Source of the DNA: Armatimonadia bacterium
GTDB lineage: Bacteria > Armatimonadota > Zipacnadia > Zipacnadales > UBA11051
Assembly: GCA_039683575.1 (NCBI GenBank)
Contig: JBDKRC010000113.1
Span: 1 to 54,498, forward strand
Direction of reading: 5' to 3'
Length of the DNA stretch: 54,498 nt
Under the pieces are notes generated by a model. That model made no database searches. It was not told the DNA's origin and was given only the letters and a program-made list of their open reading frames with translations. This document shows, piece by piece, positions 16,491 through 25,584 of this stretch (the first letter of the stretch is position 1; the number at the start of each line of letters is the position of its first letter). The position numbers and the translations under genes were made by a program.

Positions 16491-19400
16491 CTATTCGGCC
16501 GGAGCCAGGGCTGCCACATCGTAGTAGTCTAGCCCGATGTACAGGATGTTATCGGCAATCGCAGGCGATGAGTACACCCCATAGGCTGTCTGGTGCCGCC
16601 ACAGATGCTCGCCCGTGTCCAGCGCCAGCGCGTACAGAGCCCCATCCTTACTCCCGATGTAGACGATGTTGCCCGCAATCGCCGGAGAACCGAGCACTTC
16701 CTCGGCGCTCTGCACCGACCACACGGGGTCCCCATCAACAGCGGTCACGCAGACGATCCGTCCGTCCACACAGCCGACAACCACTCGATCGCGCGCCACA
16801 GCCGGTGACGAGCGAATCTGGCTGCCCAGTTTCATCCGCCAGTAGACCTCGCCGCTCTCGAGCGAAAGCGCATAGAGGTGGCCGTCGTCCGAGCCACAGT
16901 AGACCACATTCTGGACAATCGCCGCCGAGGACGCGACCGGCGCCTCAGTTACGCGCTGCCACAGCTTCGTCCCGTCCTCAGTCGCGTACGCGTAGAAGTT
17001 GCCGTCCCAGGAGCCCACGACCATCGTGCCATTTGACACGGCTGGGATGGCAGAGACCTCCCCGGCTGTCTGCGCCTTCCACAGCACCGAACCGCTGTCG
17101 ATGCTGATGGCCGTTACATGGCCGGTGCGGTTACCTACGAAGAGCCGGTCACCCGACAGCGTGACCGAGGAGCGGATTGGCGCCCCGACGTCGCGCTGCC
17201 ACAGCCTTCTCCCCGTGTCGGCGGCCGCCGCATGAACGCGCCCGTCGTGTGACCCGACAAAGACCCGGTTATTGGCCACGGCAGGGGTGCTCTCAATACG
17301 GTCGCCCGTCCGTAGCCGCCACTGTTCGGCGCCCCGCTTGGCGTCGAGCGCGTACAGGTGTCCATCACGCGAGCCGACGAACACGAGGCCGCTGGCCACC
17401 ACTGGAGAGCCCATGATTGGGCCCCTGGTGCTGTAACTCCAGACCTGCCGCAGGGGCGGAGCGATCTCAACCTCGGTGGCTCCGTCATGCGTCGCTGCCC
17501 GGTGGAACATAGGCCACGCATTGATCGCCAACACCGACTTCTGGCGCTGTTGCTCAACTTCATCAAGCGCCGTCTGCACGGTGTCCTGCCCCAGGTCCGT
17601 CCGCGACAACCGTAGCGCCGCCTGCAGGTAATTCGCCGCCTTATCGTAGTCCCGTCTCTGGTTGGCCGCAACGCCCAGCGCGTACTGCAGCTTCGGCAGC
17701 TCCGGATAGGTCTCCACCGCCGAGTTCAGAGCCTGCAACACGTCATCCTGCGCCGCCAGGTACCCGAGTGCATAGGCGCCTGCCCAGGGCAAGCCTTCCG
17801 GCCCCGTCAGCCGCTTCAGCAACGCCTCGTGCGCCCTCGGCTCGGAGAGTTCCAGCAGTGCCTCGGTCACTTCATGGCGCAGCGTCTCATCGCCGTCCTC
17901 GATGGCCGCATACAGGTGCCGCAGGCCGCGCCGCAGGTGCAGCTTGCCCACACCCCGTGCCGCCCATGCCCGGGCGCTACCGGGCCCGCGCCGCAACTCC
18001 GCGAGCAGTTCCCGCTCCATGCCTCGCAGCGCCTCGGCCGCATCGGTCCGCACCCGCTGATCCTCGTCATCAAGCAACATTACCAGTTGCTGGATGTAGG
18101 CCCGGTCCGGATACTTGATCGTCGCCCGAGCAGCCGTCAGCCGCACGTGGGGGCTCTCATGTCCCAGCAGCGACCGCAACAGCGCCGTCTGCCCCTCGCC
18201 TAGCTCAGTCAACCGCCCAAACCAGTACTCTTCATCCATCTGCTCGATGGCAGAGCTGCGCAGAACCAGTTCAAGCTCTTCAGGCGAAATCGACAGCGCC
18301 TCGCGAGCATCGTTGATAATGCGCAACTCATCGGCATGCATCAGGATGCCGAACTTCTCGTAGTTGTTTAGCTGCCGCGTCAGCAGGTCCTGGACATCCT
18401 GAACCTGTATCTCCCGCTGCGACAGCCACTGGCCTATCTGGTCGGCCAAGTACTCGTGGATCAACTCATACTGGCGCTGCCGCTCCTTACCCACTCCCCG
18501 CACCAGCCGCAGGTCCATCAGTCGCGCCAGCACCCGCTCAACTTCCTCACGATCCTCGTTCACATCGCCCGCAATGCGCTCGAGCGTACGCATCACGCGC
18601 ACCTCGCTGGACGCCACCATCTGCTTCAGTATGGCCTTGGCAATGCGGCGGTCCAGGGGCGGCAGCGACATGAGGATCTGATCCAGGAACTCGGCCAGTA
18701 TCTTCTGCGACCCGCCTGCCCGGTCATAGATCCCCATAGTGATCGTGCGCATGCTGCGCGGCTTGCTCTGGTACAGCCGGTCGCACACGATCTCGAGCTG
18801 CGCGGGTTCAATGCCATCCCGGTACAAGTCATCCAGTAGCCGGTCCACCAGCGTGCGCTCCAGCCGGATATCGAAATTCTGTGCCGGCTTGATGATCGCG
18901 TCCTCCGCCTGCTCGCGCGTAAGGCGCCGCAGACGGTACATGTGGTGCATGATATCCGGCAGCTTCCGCTGCAGGTCGTACAGGCTACCCACGAAATCTT
19001 CACGAATCGACAGCAGCCAGTGCACTTCCGGCAACTGCTCGATGCAGTCGCTCATCTCGTCAAGGAAAGTCTCCTGGACCCGCGGGCCCAGGTGGACAAA
19101 GTACTCTTCAAAGTGATCGAGGAAGATCGCCAGCTTGCGGTTCACGAGCTTCTGCACACCCGCCAGGAAGCTCCGCAGGTCCGCGATCTTGCCTATGCCC
19201 GAGGGGTCGAAACCGATCTCTTCCACCGCTGCCACGAAAGCGTCCTTGATGCTCTGGGCGGGGTCATCAACACAGCGCGCCGTGATTGGCAGCCAACTCT
19301 CGTCCGGCGTGTCAGCCTGTTCGGCCTCGTGCTGCAGCGCGGCAATCAGTCCGGCGCGCACCAGCGAAGTCTTCCCAATTCCCGACCGGCCAAACAGCAC

Positions 19401-20432
19401 CATTATCGGGTTCTGGCGCATCATCTCCAGCACCACGTCCACGTCATCTTCCCGGCCGAAGAAGAAGTCCTCGTCCTTCATATCGAAGTAATCGAGGAAC
19501 CGGTACGGCCCACCGCGCAGCACGGTCAGGTCCTTGCGCCGCCGGTCGTGCGGCCGGTGCGACCGCCGGATCAGCCGGCCGTGCATCTTGCCGAAGAAGT
19601 CGTTGAACGTCCCCGGCTCCCGGCAAAGCAGGTGCCGTCCGGAGTGTCGCGCTTCGAGCAGCGCCATTACCTCAGGCTGGAAACGGTGATACTCGACACT
19701 CGCCGGGTTCTCAACCTTCAACTCGTCAAACAACCGCTCATCCCGCATGGGGATCATGCGGTTGACCCAGAACACCTTGCCCCCATCACGGCTCACATGC
19801 CGCAGCACCCGTTCATCCCGATCGGCAAAGGCCGAGAAGACCGAGAACACGCGGAACGTGTCGGCGATGACGTCGTGCAGGTCGTCATAGCACGCCGCCA
19901 CCTCAGCCTGGGACATCGGCAGGAACTTGCTCTCGGCATCACCCGCGCACTTCACCAACACCACCCGGGTCGAGTCGCGCAGACCCACACCGATAGTGTC
20001 CGCGTCATCGATGCCGGCGACGAAGTGGTGGTAGTCCTTTTCCGGCTCCATGTGGTTGACCTGGAGGCATTGCTCCAGGATCCGGTCGGGTTCAGCGAGG
20101 AAGATCGTGGGGAAGTACCCATCCTTGATCAGACGGGCGAGGCGGATGTGTCCCTCGGAGGGGCGAGCATCGGCAAGCCGCTGCTTGAGCATCAGGCAGC
20201 GCTCGGCGTGGTCGGGCACTTCGCGGGCATAGAGCTCTATTGCCTCCGGCCCCCGGCGTTCCGGGGGCAAGGCGTCAAGCCGGTGCCCGGCCCACTCAAG
20301 CGCCATCTCCTGCAGCAGTTCATCCACCCGCAAGTCGCGCGGGGGGATGACGACGGCGCTGCCCACGAAGAGCGCGTGCTGTCCGAGTTCGTGTCGGTGT
20401 AGTTTGATGAAGTCTGCGATGACGCTTAACAT
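16491..20432 (-). CDS. Large STAND-type NTPase: degenerate SIR2-like N-domain, nSTAND1-like ATPase, HEAT/TPR repeats, C-terminal PQQ-like beta-propeller
   Basis: GPYRFLDYF...FFGRE, Walker A GRSGIGKTS, Walker B IFLDHFEE, LSIREDF, YELIHEYL; HEAT-like units; ~8 repeats of SSPAV..G.VYVGS.DG.LYAL...G...W; start could be up to 20492. Confidence 0.85.
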   Translation of the reverse strand: MLSVIADFIKLHRHELGQHALFVGSAVVIPPRDLRVDELLQEMALEWAGHRLDALPPERRGPEAIELYAREVPDHAERCLMLKQRLADARPSEGHIRLARLIKDGYFPTIFLAEPDRILEQCLQVNHMEPEKDYHHFVAGIDDADTIGVGLRDSTRVVLVKCAGDAESKFLPMSQAEVAACYDDLHDVIADTFRVFSVFSAFADRDERVLRHVSRDGGKVFWVNRMIPMRDERLFDELKVENPASVEYHRFQPEVMALLEARHSGRHLLCREPGTFNDFFGKMHGRLIRRSHRPHDRRRKDLTVLRGGPYRFLDYFDMKDEDFFFGREDDVDVVLEMMRQNPIMVLFGRSGIGKTSLVRAGLIAALQHEAEQADTPDESWLPITARCVDDPAQSIKDAFVAAVEEIGFDPSGIGKIADLRSFLAGVQKLVNRKLAIFLDHFEEYFVHLGPRVQETFLDEMSDCIEQLPEVHWLLSIREDFVGSLYDLQRKLPDIMHHMYRLRRLTREQAEDAIIKPAQNFDIRLERTLVDRLLDDLYRDGIEPAQLEIVCDRLYQSKPRSMRTITMGIYDRAGGSQKILAEFLDQILMSLPPLDRRIAKAILKQMVASSEVRVMRTLERIAGDVNEDREEVERVLARLMDLRLVRGVGKERQRQYELIHEYLADQIGQWLSQREIQVQDVQDLLTRQLNNYEKFGILMHADELRIINDAREALSISPEELELVLRSSAIEQMDEEYWFGRLTELGEGQTALLRSLLGHESPHVRLTAARATIKYPDRAYIQQLVMLLDDEDQRVRTDAAEALRGMERELLAELRRGPGSARAWAARGVGKLHLRRGLRHLYAAIEDGDETLRHEVTEALLELSEPRAHEALLKRLTGPEGLPWAGAYALGYLAAQDDVLQALNSAVETYPELPKLQYALGVAANQRRDYDKAANYLQAALRLSRTDLGQDTVQTALDEVEQQRQKSVLAINAWPMFHRAATHDGATEVEIAPPLRQVWSYSTRGPIMGSPVVASGLVFVGSRDGHLYALDAKRGAEQWRLRTGDRIESTPAVANNRVFVGSHDGRVHAAAADTGRRLWQRDVGAPIRSSVTLSGDRLFVGNRTGHVTAISIDSGSVLWKAQTAGEVSAIPAVSNGTMVVGSWDGNFYAYATEDGTKLWQRVTEAPVASSAAIVQNVVYCGSDDGHLYALSLESGEVYWRMKLGSQIRSSPAVARDRVVVGCVDGRIVCVTAVDGDPVWSVQSAEEVLGSPAIAGNIVYIGSKDGALYALALDTGEHLWRHQTAYGVYSSPAIADNILYIGLDYYDVAALAPAE

Positions 20433-20467
20433 GAGGGAAGCGCAAGCCTCTGTGTCACATGCAGTGG

Positions 20468-20485
20468 CGCCAGACGCGTCTGGCG
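20468..20485. promoter_or_regulatory. Perfect 18-bp palindrome upstream of the STAND gene
   Basis: cgccagacgcgtctggcg equals its own reverse complement. Confidence 0.4.
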
Positions 20486-20624
20486 TCGGCACCGGTGTAA
20501 GGGCCGGCAGGGCAAGTGGCTTGCCTGCTCCCGACTTCGCCCTGACCTACAGCCAAAGACCAAATCGCCACTCCGCCGCCGGGCACAGCCCGATGTCTGG
20601 AGTGGCGTCGGTTAACTACTGTTG

Positions 20625-20700
20625 TGGTGGGCCCGGCCGGATTTGAACCAGCGACCAATCGGTTATGAGCCGACTGCTCTAACCGCTGAGCTACGGGCCC
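20625..20700 (-). tRNA. tRNA-Ile2 (anticodon CAT, lysidine-type)
   Basis: Minus strand GGGCCCGTAGCTCAGCGGTTAGAGCAGTCGGCTCATAACCGATTGGTCGCTGGTTCAAATCCGGCCGGGCCCACCA, 76 nt with encoded CCA; CTCATAA loop; paired G1-C72; position after rpoD as for E. coli ileX. Confidence 0.92.
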
Positions 20701-20778: not shown

Positions 20779-22854
20779 CTATTCCAGGTAGTCCCGCAGC
20801 CGCTTGTTCCGGCTCGGATGGCGCAGCTTCTTCAGCGCCTTCGCCTCGATCTGCCGGATGCGTTCGCGGGTCACTTCAAAGATGTGCCCCACTTCTTCCA
20901 GCGTCCGCGAGTACCCGTCCTCGAGGCCGAAGCGGAGCTTCAGCACCTCGCGCTCGCGCTCGCTCAGGCTCCCCAGCACCTTCTCGAGCTGCTCGCGCAG
21001 CACCATGTTCGAGGCGGCATCTACCGGCGTATGGATCTCTTCATCCGGCACGAAGTCGCCCAGATGGCTGTTCTCTTCCTCGCCCACCGGCGCCTCGAGC
21101 GACAGCGGCTCCGGCGCGATGCGCTTGATCTCGCTGACCCGCTCCAGCGGCATGTCCATCTCCGCCGCCACTTCCTCCAGCGTGGGCTCTCGGCCCAACT
21201 GCTGCAAGAGTTGCCGGGAGGTCTTGACCAACCGGTTGATCGTCTCAACCATGTGTACCGGGATGCGAATGATCCGGCCCTGGTCGGCGATGGCGCGAGT
21301 AATGGCCTGTCTGATCCACCACGTCGCATACGTGCTGAACTTGTAGCCCTTGCGGTAGTCGAACTTCTCAACCGCCCGCATGAGCCCCATGTTACCTTCC
21401 TGGATCAGGTCCAGGAAGCTCATGGACGAACGCCCCGTATACTTGCGCGCGATGCTGACTACCAGGCGCAGGTTAGCTTCCGCCAGCGCCTGCACCGCTT
21501 CCTCGTCCTTCAGCGTCAGTGATCCGGGATCAACCGTCCCCTGATCGAGCACGCTCGAGAACTGGACGGTCAGATGCCCCGAAAGCGGCGCGCCCTTGCT
21601 CTCAGGCGGAGGAAGCTGGTTCACTATCACAGGCTGTGGCAGCTCTTCGCCGGTGTTGAAGGTAAACTGGTACGTCTCTGGCAGGTTGTAACCGGCAATC
21701 CCCTTCAGGCCGTTGCGCCCGGACTTGAGCGTCACAGTGTACGCCATATCGCCCGTCAGCGCCCGCTCGGGCACCAGCCGCACCTGCCGACGCTCGTCAT
21801 CATAGTAGACCGTCGCTGCAACGACGCTGTCCATGACGTCCTGCAGCACCACCGTCTTCTCGTTGACGCTGTCCGGCGCCAGCCGCTGGTCCAGGGTAAC
21901 CATAACTGCCCCGGCGCGCGGTGCACCCTCAGTACCGGGTGCCGGGTCTGTAGACACAACCCGAGGCGCCGCCTTGGCCGCCACGGTCTCAAAGGACACC
22001 TTCATGTCCTTTTCGAGATTGCCGTAGCCCAGGCTGCGCACGCCGCCTGTTCCGCTCTTGATGGTGAGCGTATAGCCGGTGCGATAGCGCAGGCGCTCGG
22101 TGGGAGTGAAGACGACGCGCCATGGACGCGGGCCGATCTCCAGCTCGCCAGCCACCCGCTTGCCCGCCTTGTCAGCGACGATGATGGTCTCGGCGTTGAC
22201 TGTGTCCGGCAGCACCGCGTCGCTGAAGTGCAACGCAATCAGCGGGGTGACTTCAACGTTCTTGCTTTTGTGCTTCGGAAAGACTTCAGCGACCCGCAGG
22301 CGCACATCAATGGAGCCGGTGCGGATCGTCCAGACTTCGTCCTTCTCCAGGTACCTTCCGGCGATGTCGTGCAGCCCGCCCTCGCCGCCGCGCACGGAGA
22401 TCTTGTACACCGTGTTCGGCTCCAGCCGCTCAATGGGCGTGAAGTGCAGCGAGTTCGTCAGTGCGTCAAACTCAACATTGCCCTCACTCTTTTGGATGCG
22501 ACGGGCTAGTTCGACCTCTTCCTGCGCCGAGAGCAATGGCACGCGACCGATGTCCCGCAGGTACATCCGTACGGAATCATCAATCGGGACCTCGTCGAGC
22601 TCTTCGAGTTCCTCGTCAGCCAGTGGCGCCGCTTCCTCCTCTTCCTCCTCAGCTTCCTCGTCATCAACCACGCGAATGCCGGCGTCAGTCAGCAGGCGGT
22701 ATACCTCATCAATATCCGAGGCATCCAGCTCTTCGCTCTCGCTGAGACCATCTTGGATTTCGGCGTATGTGAGCACGCCCTGGCGTTGCCCCTTGCGCAT
22801 TAGCGCACGGACTTCCTCCAGTTCGTGAATCTCAGCGTCCTTCCCCTCAGGCAA
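20779..22854 (-). CDS. rpoD: Primary RNA polymerase sigma factor RpoD with a 324-aa Ig-like (Big_5) insert between regions 1.2 and 2
   Basis: Region 1.1 ([15 protein letters not shown]), 1.2 ([16 protein letters not shown]), 2 ([41 protein letters not shown]), 3 and 4 ([21 protein letters not shown]); downstream of dnaG; TTG start at 22854 inferred from AGGAG. Confidence 0.95.
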
Positions 22855-22888
22855 AAGACAATCAACTCCTCTCGCCAGCTTGCGCTGA

Positions 22889-24886
22889 CTACTCGTCCGG
22901 CGCGGCCGGCTCCGGCTCGCTACTGGGCTGTGACGCCCCCTCACTTGCTGACAGCGCCGTCAGGCCGGCCTGATCCGAAAACCCCTCGCGCCCGGCGCCC
23001 CGGAACTTGCGGCTCAGTTGAATGAACCTTAAGAAGTCCGGATCCCCCGGTTTCATCTCTCCTCGGTCAATCGCTGCTGCAACTCTTCGCCGCCACGCCT
23101 CAAAATCCTCCCCGTCATCCTCCACTGGGTGCGAATCTGTTGTTTCTTCGTGCACGACCTCATACTCCCGCCTCAGCCCACGCATGCTCCGATACTGCAA
23201 CATCTTCTCGATAAGGCCCGTAAAGACCTCCTCGGTGCAATCATCATTACTAACAGATAACTCCACCGCGCGTTCCCGCACCCCACCCTCATCCGGCAAG
23301 GTCGGCACAATCGCCTGCGGCACGAACCCCTCATCCCCGGCACGCGCAAACAACGCCGCCGCAATTGCCTGGTGGCATTCATCATGAAAAAGATCTGGCG
23401 TCACCCGCGAGGCCAGTTCACGGCATGACGTCGTATCCGTCAGCGCCATGAACAGTAACTGCGCCTCCACGCCCAGCACGCCCGGCGGTACCTCCCCGGC
23501 CTGCCGCGCGACGGCATCGAGAATCGGCGCCCGATCCCGTGCGGCGTTCGGACGACGTCGAAAACGCGGCTGCTCGCCCGCGCGCCTCTGAAACTCCAGA
23601 CGCAGCGCCCGCGACAATGCCTCACCCCGGCCCGGATTCGATTGCGCCCAATAGTCCGCAACCCGGTCCAAAAGCTCCTGGCGCCGCGCGGGCTCGTGAA
23701 CCTTAACCAGCACATCCACCGCCGACCGCGCCGCCCGCACCCGCCCGTCACCGTCATGCACGTTATACTGCTCGAACGCCATCCGGATCTGATACTCAGG
23801 AAAGCTGATCCCAGCCGCCACCGCCTGCCGCACTGCCTCCGGTCCGCGCTGTCGCACACACTCATCCGGGTCCAGCCCGTCCGGCAGCGTGACTATCTTG
23901 GCATCAGCGTCACTGCTCTCAAATACCGCGATATTCCGCAGCGCCGCCTGCTTCCCCGCATTATCCGCATCATAGATGAAGTACAACTTCTCCGCATATC
24001 TCGACAGCAGCCGCAGGTGCGCCTCTGTCGTCGCCGTTCCCAGGCATGCCACCACGTTCTCAAACCCCGCCTGCACCAGCGCGATCACGTCCATGTAACC
24101 TTCGACAACCAGCACGGACTTGCTGGACGTGACTGCCTGCCGCGCCAGGTTCAGCCCGTAGACCGTCGCGCCCTTCTTGAACACCGCCGTGTCCGGGCTA
24201 TTGAGGTACTTCGCCTGTTCGTCCGGGTCCAGCGCCCTGCCCCCAAAGGCAATCACCCGCCCCGACACATCAACGATCGGGAACATGACCCTGTGACGGA
24301 AGACGTCGTAGTGGCCCGCCGAACTCCCCCGCGGCTTCACCAGCCCCGCCGCCTCCAGCGTCTTCTCGTTGAAACCCTTACCCGAAAGATGCCTGAGCAG
24401 GCCATCCCAGCCGTTGAGCGCATACCCGATCTTGAAGGTCTTGATGATCTCCGGCGTCAGCCCCCGCCGCTCCAGATAGTCGGCCGCCACTTTCCCCTGC
24501 GGCGAGTGAAGCATCTGCTGAAAGTACTCCGCCGCCAGCTCGTTCGCCTTCAGCGCCGTCTGGCGGTCCCGCCCGGTCTTCTCGCCGCCCGGTCCGGACG
24601 ACTTCCATTCCACGCCTGCCCGCTGTGCCAGCCGCTCCGCCGCTTCCGGAAACGTCAGGCCCTCAATCTGCATCACGAACGTGAAGATATCGCCGAACGC
24701 CCCGCAGCCAAAGCACTTCCAGTTCCCGCGCTCGGGATCGACGTAGAAAGACGCGGTCTTCTCCTGGTGGAACGGGCACCGCGCACCGAAGCGCCGCCCC
24801 ATGCGCTGGAGCGGCACGTAACGAGACACCAGTTCGACGATGTCGATCCGTCGCCTGATCTCTTCCTTGATTTCGTCGGAGGTCAT
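22889..24886 (-). CDS. dnaG: DNA primase
   Basis: [11 protein letters not shown]...WKCFGC zinc finger, [46 protein letters not shown]. Confidence 0.96.
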
Positions 24887-24975
24887 GGGTATAGGATTCT
24901 CTCGGGGTGCGGCTTTGACCTGCAGATAGCTTCCGGGTTGGTCCTCCGTGGCCGCTTGGTACTGTTTGTACCAGA

Positions 24976-25584
24976 CTATTCCACGTCGCCCAGACGAAGG
25001 GGCTCTTCTGTCTTGTCGGCAATAACCCATTCGGCGGTGTATCGTCGGAGTTTGCGGAACACTCCTAGGCCATATCTCGGACTTACGGTCTCTCCCCAAA
25101 TTGCGAGACGATACTCACCAGGGGGAAGGGCGAATGCTCTGGTCATACTTGGGGCTATCTCAGTATGCATCCTGACCGGGCCATCGAAAGACATGTATAC
25201 GGTCTCGTTGGACGAGTTGACCATGACCAGTTCTGGTGTCTGCGAAGTGGATTCCGTCTCAGTGAATGGTGAGCCACTGGGCCGCGACTGCTCCCCTTTC
25301 GGCGGCTCAAGGCTCCGTCTTCGGCCCTCGCTGAGACTAGGCGTTCGCTTCATGTCTATGGATCTGCGCACGCCGTCTGCTAAGCCATCCAGTTGCTCCG
25401 TGGTTGGCAGCAGAGGGCGATCAAGCACTGATGGTGGGTCGGCGAACAGAGAGGATCGGCATTTGAGAGACAGAACGGAGACGGTAGAAACTATCCCGAC
25501 TGCAATCAGGGACAGCCCCACCGTACGGCGCCGTCGATTCCGTACAATGACTTCTTGCCTATGCGATGGACAACTGGTACCCAT
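24976..25584 (-). CDS. Hypothetical membrane-anchored/secreted protein (atypical composition)
   Basis: 202-aa ORF with basic stretch plus hydrophobic helix and a C-terminal beta-rich segment (LPPGEYRL); weaker GC3 bias; start uncertain. Confidence 0.5.
   Translation of the reverse strand: MGTSCPSHRQEVIVRNRRRRTVGLSLIAVGIVSTVSVLSLKCRSSLFADPPSVLDRPLLPTTEQLDGLADGVRRSIDMKRTPSLSEGRRRSLEPPKGEQSRPSGSPFTETESTSQTPELVMVNSSNETVYMSFDGPVRMHTEIAPSMTRAFALPPGEYRLAIWGETVSPRYGLGVFRKLRRYTAEWVIADKTEEPLRLGDVE

Follow-up and report, generated by a model that had tools for sequence, protein, structure and literature searches.

Few bacterial proteins are as strongly conserved as the primary sigma factors, and to our knowledge the only large sigma insert that has been studied in depth is the helical non-conserved region (sigma-NCR) of proteobacteria, whose role took decades to begin to emerge. 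The E. coli sigma-NCR has been described as contacting DNA at -16/-17 and aiding open-complex formation, and the same account, in the part available, has the size of the sigma-NCR varying by phylum, with RbpA filling that space in mycobacteria (10.1101/256826). Among the lineage-specific insertions of the beta and beta' subunits, the cyanobacterial SI3 is portrayed as reaching sigma, in what has been termed an 'SI3-sigma arch' (as cited in PMC13114784). Here we describe a sigma factor from an Armatimonadia bacterium that carries a large insert related to bacterial Ig-like domains precisely at the site of the sigma-NCR, between regions 1.2 and 2.1, where a preliminary description of the locus had placed it. 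The gene lies in a stretch of 54,498 nucleotides, hereafter the window (GenBank assembly GCA_039683575.1, contig JBDKRC010000113.1, positions 1 to 54,498).

The rpoD coding sequence occupies 20779..22854 of the reverse strand and specifies a protein of 691 aa, with a TTG start codon at 22854-22852 and a stop codon at 20781-20779. This TTG at 22854 has an AGGAG motif 11 nt upstream, and the relatives start at the aligned MPEGK; the 721-aa open reading frame that had been listed (20779-22944, reverse strand) begins too early, and its correction to 691 aa brings the protein into line with its relatives. The Pfam amino-acid positions of the sigma regions given here follow the numbering of that 721-aa frame. 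On the reverse strand, regions 1.1 (22600..22818; PF03979, Sigma70_r1_1, E 6.7e-15, aa 43-115), 1.2 (22489..22578; PF00140, Sigma70_r1_2, E 1.1e-16, aa 123-152), 2 (21274..21486; PF04542, E 5.2e-23, aa 487-557), 3 (21016..21246; PF04539, E 2.5e-26, aa 567-643) and 4 (20818..20979; PF04545, E 4e-24, aa 656-709) follow one another in order, all above the Pfam cut-offs, and the sigma factor is intact from region 1.1 to region 4, as had been claimed. Directly upstream of rpoD on the same strand is the primase gene dnaG (22889..25099), recognized by matches to Zn_ribbon_DnaG, DNAG_N, Toprim and DnaB_bind, so that the reported dnaG-rpoD synteny is confirmed; the dnaG coordinates are those of the open reading frame as listed, and the real start probably lies further in. 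Directly downstream, at 20625..20700 on the reverse strand, ARAGORN predicts a tRNA-Met with anticodon CAT where the preliminary description had a tRNA-Ile2; it may be either of the two.

With the RpoD_Cterm model (TIGR02393, curated cut-off 354) the protein scores 380.1 bits and the genome search yields 383.4 bits for the same gene, the only one of four matches above the cut-off (the remaining three score 100.6, 82.6 and 24.6 bits); no second, plain rpoD was found by this search of an assembly of 352 contigs that is 96% complete. Taken with the dnaG-rpoD synteny, this supports the earlier assignment of the gene as the likely primary (housekeeping) sigma factor, of which it is the only one by all of these tests. 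In the available part of the Fimbriimonas genome paper, 'three rpoD' are counted.

The Ig-like insert is encoded by 21508..22479 of the reverse strand, which translates in frame into 324 aa after '...RIQKSEG', and the 972-bp in-frame Big_5 insert first noticed in the bare sequence is thereby confirmed. The whole protein matches Big_5 (PF13205) with an E-value of 6.9e-38 and 130 bits, against a cut-off of 23.6, in three stretches, and for the segment between regions 1.2 and 2 the Pfam scan lists Big_5 and a weak Big_10 and no other family. The Pfam E-values, together with the conservation of the insert in 47 further genomes, exclude a chance match to Big_5. At the aligned insertion point plain relatives read '...RVERGD-REAK...' or '...RIDHGD-EEAK...', where the present protein has '...RIQKSEG[324 aa]DEEA...'. 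As the plain relatives join at a two-residue G-D turn, simple geometry indicates that the two ends of the insert must meet within the span of a turn.

The insert had been described as a set of tandem repeats; its Ig-like Big_5 nature stands, but it is not an array of whole domains, being composed of a half, two wholes and a further half, all on the reverse strand. Piece 1 (22306..22479, aa 156-213) is the C-terminal half of a Big_5 domain with four predicted strands, and aligns with positions 60-103 of the 105 in the profile (E 0.0012, 20.0 bits, alone under the cut-off). Pieces 2 (21976..22305, aa 214-323) and 3 (21646..21975, aa 324-433) are complete Big_5 domains, aligning respectively with positions 5-105 (E 6e-14, 53.1 bits) and 3-105 (E 5e-16, 59.8 bits). 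Piece 4 (21508..21645, aa 434-479) is an N-terminal half with four predicted strands that runs into the region 2.1 helix and aligns with positions 4-41 of 105 (E 0.097, 13.8 bits, alone under the cut-off and not significant). Since pieces 1 and 4 are complementary on the Big_5 profile, the two halves may be read as one split domain.

In an AlphaFold2 model of the full-length protein the segment from 155 to 479 is all-beta, its four blocks being predicted with pLDDT values of 85-94 and 4+8+7+4 strands. The strands of piece 1 span 155-160, 165-170, 179-184 and 203-209 (pLDDT about 90), and those of piece 4 span 440-444, 449-452, 458-462 and 476-479, followed by a helix from 481. The insert modelled alone (336 residues, 35-row alignment) reached a mean pLDDT of 93.3 and a pTM of 0.86, which fits a fixed arrangement of the domains better than beads on a string. 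Foldseek searches with the insert model recovered as best matches the tandem bacterial Ig domains of LdtMt2 (4hu2, E 3.7e-11), titin, RPTP Ig1-2 and the S-layer protein SbsC, with TM-scores that are low (0.2-0.39) because the arrangement of domains differs. By these models the insert has an Ig-like beta-sandwich fold; a sequence search of the PDB with it gave no match at E <= 0.01. With the full model, all 50 rows listed by Foldseek were sigma chains, with about 240 columns aligned, and the first-ranked was a plain SigA gapped across the insert.

The pairing of the two halves was approached by predicting pieces 1 and 4 as a complex, which scored 0.38 against 0.01 for the best control and gave weak support, with runs agreeing in at least 95% of contacts and a partner pLDDT of at least 70. 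In the benchmark of this procedure 58 of 80 solved complexes and 2 of 110 mismatched pairs attained the mark, figures that apply only roughly here because an alignment of our own was used; at scores of 0.60 or less it was reached by only 7 of the 80 solved complexes, together with both of the mismatches that passed. Halves of Ig folds may pass such a test through their resemblance to solved structures. We infer that the two halves probably pair, and regard a closed module with a split, circularly permuted Ig domain as the probable architecture. A segment of an array cut from mid-domain to mid-domain would consist of a C-terminal half, two whole domains and an N-terminal half; the two terminal halves would complement each other as a third, circularly permuted Ig domain, whose C and C' strands would lead into and out of the insert. 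In that case the 324-aa block would form a compact and closed module of three Ig domains suspended from sigma domain 2, a picture in part demonstrated and in part modelled.

The possibility of a chimeric assembly, against which the preliminary description had cautioned, is rejected, as the insert is found in 48 genomes and both junctions are spanned by contigs from other runs. A single long rpoD of this kind is present in 47 genomes besides that of the window, in some of them on contigs of over 500 kb. Two contigs (X2 record 13 and X4 record 22) end at 21509 and 21508, at the downstream junction, without a loose end, and these stops probably represent forks in the assembly graph where the highly conserved core begins; X1 record 6 bridges this junction. 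The four runs share a single study, and the source of the window may be among them, so they do not count as independent support. Contigs of two RNA libraries also carry the insert, and one of these bridges the upstream junction, with DNA carry-over as a possible origin; for a role in housekeeping transcription they are indirect support.

Of the genomes sampled from the class, 49 have a complete rpoD, and 48 of these carry the insert at the same site. In the order-level sample 41 of 44 genomes match it, and the three that do not also have no RpoD_Cterm match and are 80-89% complete. The other orders of the class contributed six long RpoDs, all six with Big_5 between r1_2 and r2 and with the same half-domain ends. 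Plain RpoD frames of 369-384 aa were found in one genome of the same class (G397) and in three of other classes (G001, G315 and G360). A tree of the sigma core from which the insert columns had been removed places all 35 Ig-bearing rows on one side of a branch with an SH-aLRT value of 93; with only three plain rows and the root of the tree not established, gain in the Ig-bearing clade versus loss in the G397 lineage is not strictly settled.

A profile search of 1.84 billion representatives returned, among the best 150 matches, only three that were full-length and in a single stretch (P0030, P0036 and P0046), the remainder being giant Big_5 proteins or sigma factors. In 18 other sigma-like proteins from these 150, picked by length, by the presence of three stretches or by a match reaching into the insert, no Big_5 or other Ig family was found, and weaker inserts of Ig type may rank below these 150. 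A search for the locus with the single RpoD protein returned one relative. The giant proteins, of 1333 to 7573 aa, match with 5-34 stretches and align with three consecutive domains of the insert, which fits an origin from such an array. The genome of the window has 39 Big_5 matches of its own; as for a recent donor gene among them, tblastn recovered only the internal repeat of the insert (25.6% over 266 aa), and this candidate source was set aside. We propose that a segment of a tandem Big_5 array was inserted once into the housekeeping sigma factor, at the G-D turn between the helices of regions 1.2 and 2.1.

The insert combines almost fixed lengths with a rapidly changing sequence. Its pieces measure 58/110/110/46 aa in nearly all of the 29 order-level sequences, and piece 4 has 46 aa in all 35. 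NG86 estimates of dN/dS for the insert lie at 0.13-0.38 in 12 of 13 pairs and at 0.61 in one, against 0.006-0.077 for the sigma core; as rounded figures, the insert stands at about 0.2 and the core at about 0.01-0.04. The mean identity to the window is 27-44% for each of the insert pieces against 89% for regions 2-4, and the sigma core is 78-98% identical across the clade. Class-wide, conservation falls mainly on the Gly, Pro and aromatic residues that belong to the Big_5 fold itself, so that no functional surface stands out. We are all but certain that the insert is real, of single origin and under selection.

As to function, the module would act as this clade's rigid counterpart of the sigma-NCR, placed alongside the beta' clamp and the DNA upstream of -10, where it would tune the stability of the holoenzyme or open complex or present a surface on which a clade-specific partner could dock; it would be cytoplasmic and unrelated to the usual role of Big_5 in surface proteins. 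On present analysis such a sigma-NCR-like or docking function is a tentative assignment to which we give slightly less than an even chance. The roles put forward in the preliminary description (docking, ligand sensing, DNA contact or localisation) stand as candidates. The beta' subunit is long (1633 aa) and carries additional sequence within Rpb1 domains 1 and 5; a co-insertion specific to the Ig-bearing sigma was dismissed on finding the same large insertions in the plain-sigma relative G397 (beta' of 1757 aa), so that no co-inserted partner is seen at that resolution. The idea that the module replaces CarD likewise gained nothing from PF02559, which matches one long, Mfd-sized frame in each of five genomes, with Ig or plain sigma alike, and is uninformative. 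A more ambitious version, in which the three-Ig ring is a regulatory hub, bound by a clade-specific partner (whether protein, nucleic acid or small ligand) that thereby controls all transcription by the primary sigma, or in which the ring replaces accessory factors of the RbpA or CarD kind, we regard as doubtful; if true, it would be an Ig-fold, permuted-closure mode of global control without a described sigma counterpart.

The most serious competitor of these functional readings is that the insert is a tolerated passenger, a neutral or nearly neutral accretion in a permissive surface loop with no transcriptional role of its own, retained for no other reason than that an unfolded or truncated form of it would damage an essential protein. 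The low identity of the pieces, a dN/dS about 5-30 times the core value, the lack of conserved charge and the restriction of conserved positions to the Big_5 fold all sit well with this. Against it stand the retention of the insert across all but one of the class genomes with a complete rpoD, the near-invariance of piece lengths across the order with no domain gained or lost, a dN/dS well under 1, and the cost of carrying 324 additional residues on the most abundant sigma factor, when clean loss of the insert would need only the restoration of the G-D turn. We consider the passenger unlikely, to about the same degree as the hub. Less probable still is a module acting by direct DNA contact, in which the Ig block extends to promoter DNA upstream of -10 and, by that contact alone, makes the open complex more stable. 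The insertion site is that of the sigma-NCR, whose R157 in E. coli reaches promoter DNA, and the partial account at hand pairs this contact of the E. coli NCR with the presence of RbpA in the same space (10.1101/256826). Ig2 in the genome of the window is also basic (+5, pI 9.7), a property from which the preliminary description had surmised DNA contact; this cue fails across the clade, where Ig2 has net charges anywhere between -11 and +10 in the 35 sequences and the charge of the other pieces varies too. A Lys in the Ig2-Ig3 linker is mostly conserved and no conserved basic patch was otherwise seen, although contact through a single conserved residue would be possible.

A different kind of objection is that the gene is not the housekeeping sigma at all, and is instead a specialised or defence sigma-70 paralogue of the MzaA type, or a chimera, the true rpoD being absent from the bins. 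Two full-length RpoD equivalog models do fall under their cut-offs (NF006666 at 517.2 against 572, NF004208 at 510.9 against 555, in two stretches each), MzaA, the MZA anti-phage sigma-70 family protein (NF041931), is listed at 365.3 bits, and the assembly is fragmented and incomplete to the extent given above. The equivalog shortfall fits an N-terminal part interrupted by the insert and is not read as evidence against RpoD identity, and MzaA was rejected, its score lying far below the cut-off of 800 with a best stretch confined to the sigma core. The RpoD_Cterm score, unmatched by any other copy in the genome, the dnaG-rpoD synteny, the 78-98% identity of the core across the clade, the recurrence of the same single long rpoD in the other genomes and the bridging of both junctions by contigs of other runs leave this objection with very little probability. 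Considered as a whole, the explanation that combines a single origin by insertion of an array segment, a closed split-domain module and a sigma-NCR role is the one that we favour, with moderate confidence.

In keeping with the preliminary description, which knew of no sigma factor with Ig domains, we found no report of one in the literature searched and no solved structure of one in the PDB searches; nor did that literature provide a sigma example of repeated beta-rich insertion in a surface loop. The clade offers a natural experiment, in that close relatives with and without an all-beta module of 35 kDa at one and the same turn can be compared, and this clean presence or absence makes directly testable what sigma2 can carry and what effect it has on initiation. 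It may further provide an example of how a piece of a repeat array becomes insertable by re-closing through a permuted domain, and of a 'surface-protein' Ig family found inside the cytoplasm. Should the module dock a regulator, a phylum about which little is known would have revealed a new way of controlling transcription globally.

Of the described systems the sigma-NCR is the closest by position: as far as the available account extends, it too lies between regions 1.2 and 2.1, is lineage-specific and of variable size, and by its example the insert would be expected on the outer face of sigma2, close to the DNA upstream of -10 (10.1101/256826). Unlike the E. coli sigma-NCR the insert is predicted to be all-beta and Ig-like rather than helical, and no helical NCR family appears in its Pfam list; it is also larger (324 aa), built of repeats and probably closed by a permuted domain, and close relatives of the bacterium are without any NCR and have only the G-D turn. 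RbpA of Actinobacteria, which is described as occupying the space that separates a short sigma-NCR from promoter DNA (10.1101/256826), is a possible functional analogy, and yet is a separate small protein with a fold unrelated to that of the insert. The lineage-specific insertions of beta and beta' (beta'i2, beta'i6/SI3, beta i4 and i9, of SBHM and other types), as represented in the part of the survey at hand, resemble the insert in being a small, repeated beta-rich fold in a surface loop of a universally conserved transcription protein that became fixed in one lineage (PMC2939025); they differ in that the host here is sigma and the fold is Big_5 Ig-like and not SBHM. By sequence family the insert belongs with the Big_5 arrays of giant secreted and surface proteins, from which it is set apart by domains that are cytoplasmic and lodged inside a sigma factor, with both cuts falling in mid-domain, and that have probably been re-closed.

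The minus-strand ORF at 20779-22944 encodes a protein in which a Pfam scan recognized all five sigma-70 regions (r1_1 at residues 43-115, r1_2 at 123-152, r2 at 487-557, r3 at 567-643 and r4 at 656-709 of the 721-residue ORF), with a Big_5 (PF13205) match in three stretches lying between r1_2 and r2 (E = 6.9e-38). This Ig-like insert, first proposed in a preliminary description, is the 324-residue in-frame translation of 21508-22479, flanked by '...RIQKSEG' and a 17-residue stretch not reproduced here. The RpoD of relatives starts at an aligned 'MPEGK', a position at which a TTG (22854) is found eleven bases behind an AGGAG; thus, the listed ORF begins too early and RpoD comprises 691 residues. 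The gene is adjoined upstream by dnaG and downstream by a tRNA gene with the anticodon CAT (20625-20700, minus strand), assigned to Met by ARAGORN and previously read as Ile2. Directly past this tRNA is a gene (16491-20492, minus strand) for a 1333-residue protein combining an nSTAND1/NACHT STAND NTPase, HEAT repeats and a PQQ/BamB-type beta-propeller, an architecture typical of signalling or defence NTPases.

The insert-bearing sigma scored 380 bits against the NCBIfam RpoD C-terminal model (cut-off 354), and was the only one of four matches above this cut-off (the others scored 100.6, 82.6 and 24.6 bits) in the genome (6.23 Mb in 352 contigs, 96.4% complete), which therefore shows no second, plain rpoD by this measure. 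The full-length RpoD equivalog models scored slightly below their cut-offs (517 against 572 and 511 against 555 bits), each in two stretches, as expected for an interrupted N-terminal part. The defence-associated MzaA was rejected as an identity, its model scoring 365 bits against the 800 required. Contigs from other sequencing runs bridge both junctions of the insert: upstream, DNA contigs of two runs (X1 record 7, 21932-22950; X2 record 14, 21885-22843) and an RNA-library contig (X4 record 27, 22351-22567), and downstream one DNA contig (X1 record 6, 21355-21949), while RNA-library contigs of X3 within the insert are identical to the window; all four runs belong to one study, which may include the window's own source, and the RNA libraries may hold DNA carry-over. 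Two further contigs, one from a DNA run and one from an RNA library, stop without loose ends at exactly 21508 and 21509, the boundary of the insert with region 2; these stops are probably assembly-graph forks at which the conserved sigma core shared by co-occurring relatives begins. Given the sole above-cut-off match and the bridged junctions, we regard it as very improbable that the gene is not the housekeeping sigma or that the insert is an artefact.

Scanning four pieces of the insert against the Big_5 profile (105 positions) showed that residues 156-213 match profile positions 60-103 (E = 0.0012), 214-323 positions 5-105 (E = 6e-14), 324-433 positions 3-105 (E = 5e-16) and 434-479 positions 4-41 (E = 0.097). 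The insert hence consists of a C-terminal half, two whole domains and an N-terminal half: the tandem Ig-like domains of the preliminary description are present as Big_5 repeats, but not as a string of whole ones. In an AlphaFold2 model of the full protein (31-row alignment) the four pieces comprise 4, 8, 7 and 4 strands in blocks of pLDDT 85-94, with the region 1.2 helix stopping at residue 152 and the next helix starting at 481. Plain sigmas from the same phylum read '...RVERGD-REAK...' (G397) and '...RIDHGD-EEAK...' (G001) where the window has '...RIQKSEG', the 324 residues and 'DEEA...'; the insert thus occupies a two-residue turn, and both of its ends must sit side by side. It is quite likely that pieces 1 and 4 pair as one permuted Ig domain that closes the insert, whose C-C' hairpin would be made by the final strand of piece 4 together with the initial strand of piece 1; such pairing would be the simplest way for the ends to meet. 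Modelled alone (336 residues, 35-row alignment), the insert gave a mean pLDDT of 93.3 and a pTM of 0.86, which fits the pairing. Complex prediction of piece 1 with piece 4 lends it weak support, with a score of 0.38 against 0.01 for the best control, at least 95% of contacts agreeing between runs and partner pLDDT of at least 70; the run used a custom alignment, and halves of a common fold may pass through likeness to solved structures. Of 80 solved complexes, 58 attain the mark applied, as do 2 of 110 mismatched pairs; only 7 of the 80, plus both passing mismatches, attain it with scores of 0.60 or less. Foldseek searches with the insert model recovered tandem Ig domains, those of LdtMt2 (A and B; E = 3.7e-11), titin, RPTP Ig1-2 and the S-layer protein SbsC, with TM-scores kept low by the differing domain arrangement.

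Querying 5.8 billion proteins with the insert by word-based search returned 32 proteins of 670-729 residues, all sharing one set of six Pfam families, with identities of 37-89% across the insert; the sources of two name them RpoD of 'Armatimonadetes bacterium'. The locus of a close relative (L062) is titled 'uncultured Armatimonadia bacterium'. Among 401 sampled genomes of the phylum, the insert was matched in 41 of the 44 from the window's order, its own genome not counted (E = 2.5e-131 to 2.4e-47; frames of about 690-740 residues, apart from a 502-residue frame in G337 broken off by a contig end); the remaining three (80-89% complete) also lack an RpoD C-terminal match, implying that rpoD is unassembled there. 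Six genomes from other orders of the class (G092, G317, G367, G054, G264 and G185) have long rpoD frames, all with Big_5 between r1_2 and r2 and with the same half-domain starts and ends. G367 additionally has, at a contig end (L048, G367:C29), a C-terminal fragment of a plain RpoD that belongs to another sequence type, which may represent contamination (listed at 5%) or a true second group-1/2 sigma. In the same class, the rpoD of G194 is broken off by a contig end, and G397 (completeness 100%, 7 contigs) encodes a plain sigma in a 378-residue frame, 364 residues from the chosen start, with r1_2 extending to 123 and r2 beginning at 129. Counting the sampled genomes of the class in which rpoD is complete, 48 of 49 have the insert. 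Outside the class, G001, G315 and G360 encode plain sigmas in frames of 369-384 residues, their weak insert-like matches being other proteins elsewhere in the genome. In a sigma-core tree without the insert columns (38 rows, 278 columns), all 35 insert-bearing rows fell to one side of a branch supported at SH-aLRT 93, with three plain rows only and the root not fixed.

Against the window, 34 relatives (29 of the 41 order-level matches, less the contig-end fragment L015, plus the six class-level sequences) showed mean identities of 48% in region 1.1, 78% in region 1.2, 44, 32, 42 and 27% in pieces 1 to 4, and 89% in regions 2-4. Piece lengths are 58, 110, 110 and 46 residues in nearly all order sequences, piece 4 having 46 in 35 of 35, and most positions invariant throughout the class are Big_5 core residues (Gly, Pro, Phe and Tyr). 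Of 13 pairs, 12 gave an NG86 dN/dS of 0.13-0.38 for the insert, the exception being a divergent pair at 0.61; the two pairs with the least saturation stood at 0.19. The sigma core yielded 0.006-0.077. The near-constant lengths and these ratios point to purifying selection on the fold and geometry of the insert, whose surface is, as judged from sequence, far less constrained than the core.

Giant many-repeat Big_5 proteins align with three consecutive insert domains simultaneously, and identity among the insert domains themselves is 25.6% over 266 residues. The genome has 39 Big_5 matches (e.g. on contigs C63, C79, C238 and C275), several in very long frames of up to 4649 residues; tblastn revealed no close donor gene among its sequences. 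These observations fit an ancient, one-time capture, from a tandem array, of a segment cut within a domain at either end, which would be insertable because its ends re-close.

The preliminary description knew of no sigma factor with Ig domains, and full-text literature searches likewise yielded no description of these or of an Armatimonadota RpoD insert; one Armatimonadetes genome paper gives a count of rpoD genes. The insert has no sequence match in the PDB. With the full RpoD model, the 50 Foldseek matches listed were all to sigma chains, with alignments of about 240 columns, and the first was a plain SigA with gaps across the insert. Beyond the clade no similar sigma turned up: when 1.84 billion representatives were searched with a profile, only 3 of the best 150 matches were full-length in a single stretch, the remainder being giant Big_5 proteins or sigma factors, and Big_5 was absent from the 18 other long sigmas scanned among them. 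Five other primary sigmas among these matches (P0140, P0077, P0127, P0154 and P0130) have large stretches without a Pfam match between regions 1.2 and 2 (about 370 residues, 124 to 494, in P0140 and about 340 in P0077), some also with long N-terminal extensions.

The insert is placed where the sigma non-conserved region (NCR) lies, a region that in E. coli touches beta' and helps promoter escape. We tentatively propose that the insert, as a closed three-Ig module, is the NCR of this clade: a rigid body that would lie on the outer sigma2 face, close to the beta' clamp and to the upstream border of the -10 region, and would tune the stability of the holoenzyme or open complex or present a docking surface. 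A tolerated passenger is a less likely reading. A purely DNA-contacting module seems more doubtful still: the preliminary description took the basic second Ig domain as a cue for DNA binding, but its net charge, +5 in the window, varies between -11 and +10 among the sequences compared and is not conserved, which removes the cue. No co-inserted beta' partner was found, the beta' of the plain-sigma G397 having the same large insertions, and stand-alone CarD (PF02559) was absent from the five genomes examined with either kind of sigma. Beta' is unusually long in both the window's genome (1633 residues; L063, G000:C190, 606-5504, minus strand) and G397 (1757 residues; L064), with about 185 extra residues in Rpb1 domain 1 (clamp region) and about 220 in domain 5 (trigger-loop region), neither matching a Pfam family.

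Beta and beta' are well known to carry lineage-specific modules of beta-rich repeats, among which beta'i6 matters and beta i4 and i9 look peripheral (PMC2939025), and a cyanobacterial SI3-sigma arch has been cited (PMC13114784). The NCR itself varies by phylum, with 72 residues in Thermus and 29-32 in mycobacteria, where RbpA occupies the space between the short NCR and DNA, while in E. coli its R157 contacts DNA at -16/-17 and aids open-complex formation (10.1101/256826). The E. coli NCR is a helical domain of 247 residues, whereas the window has 324 residues of Big_5 Ig-like fold at the same site. The RpoD insert is a lineage-specific insert at the NCR site, whose fold is new there, as is its probable way of closing.
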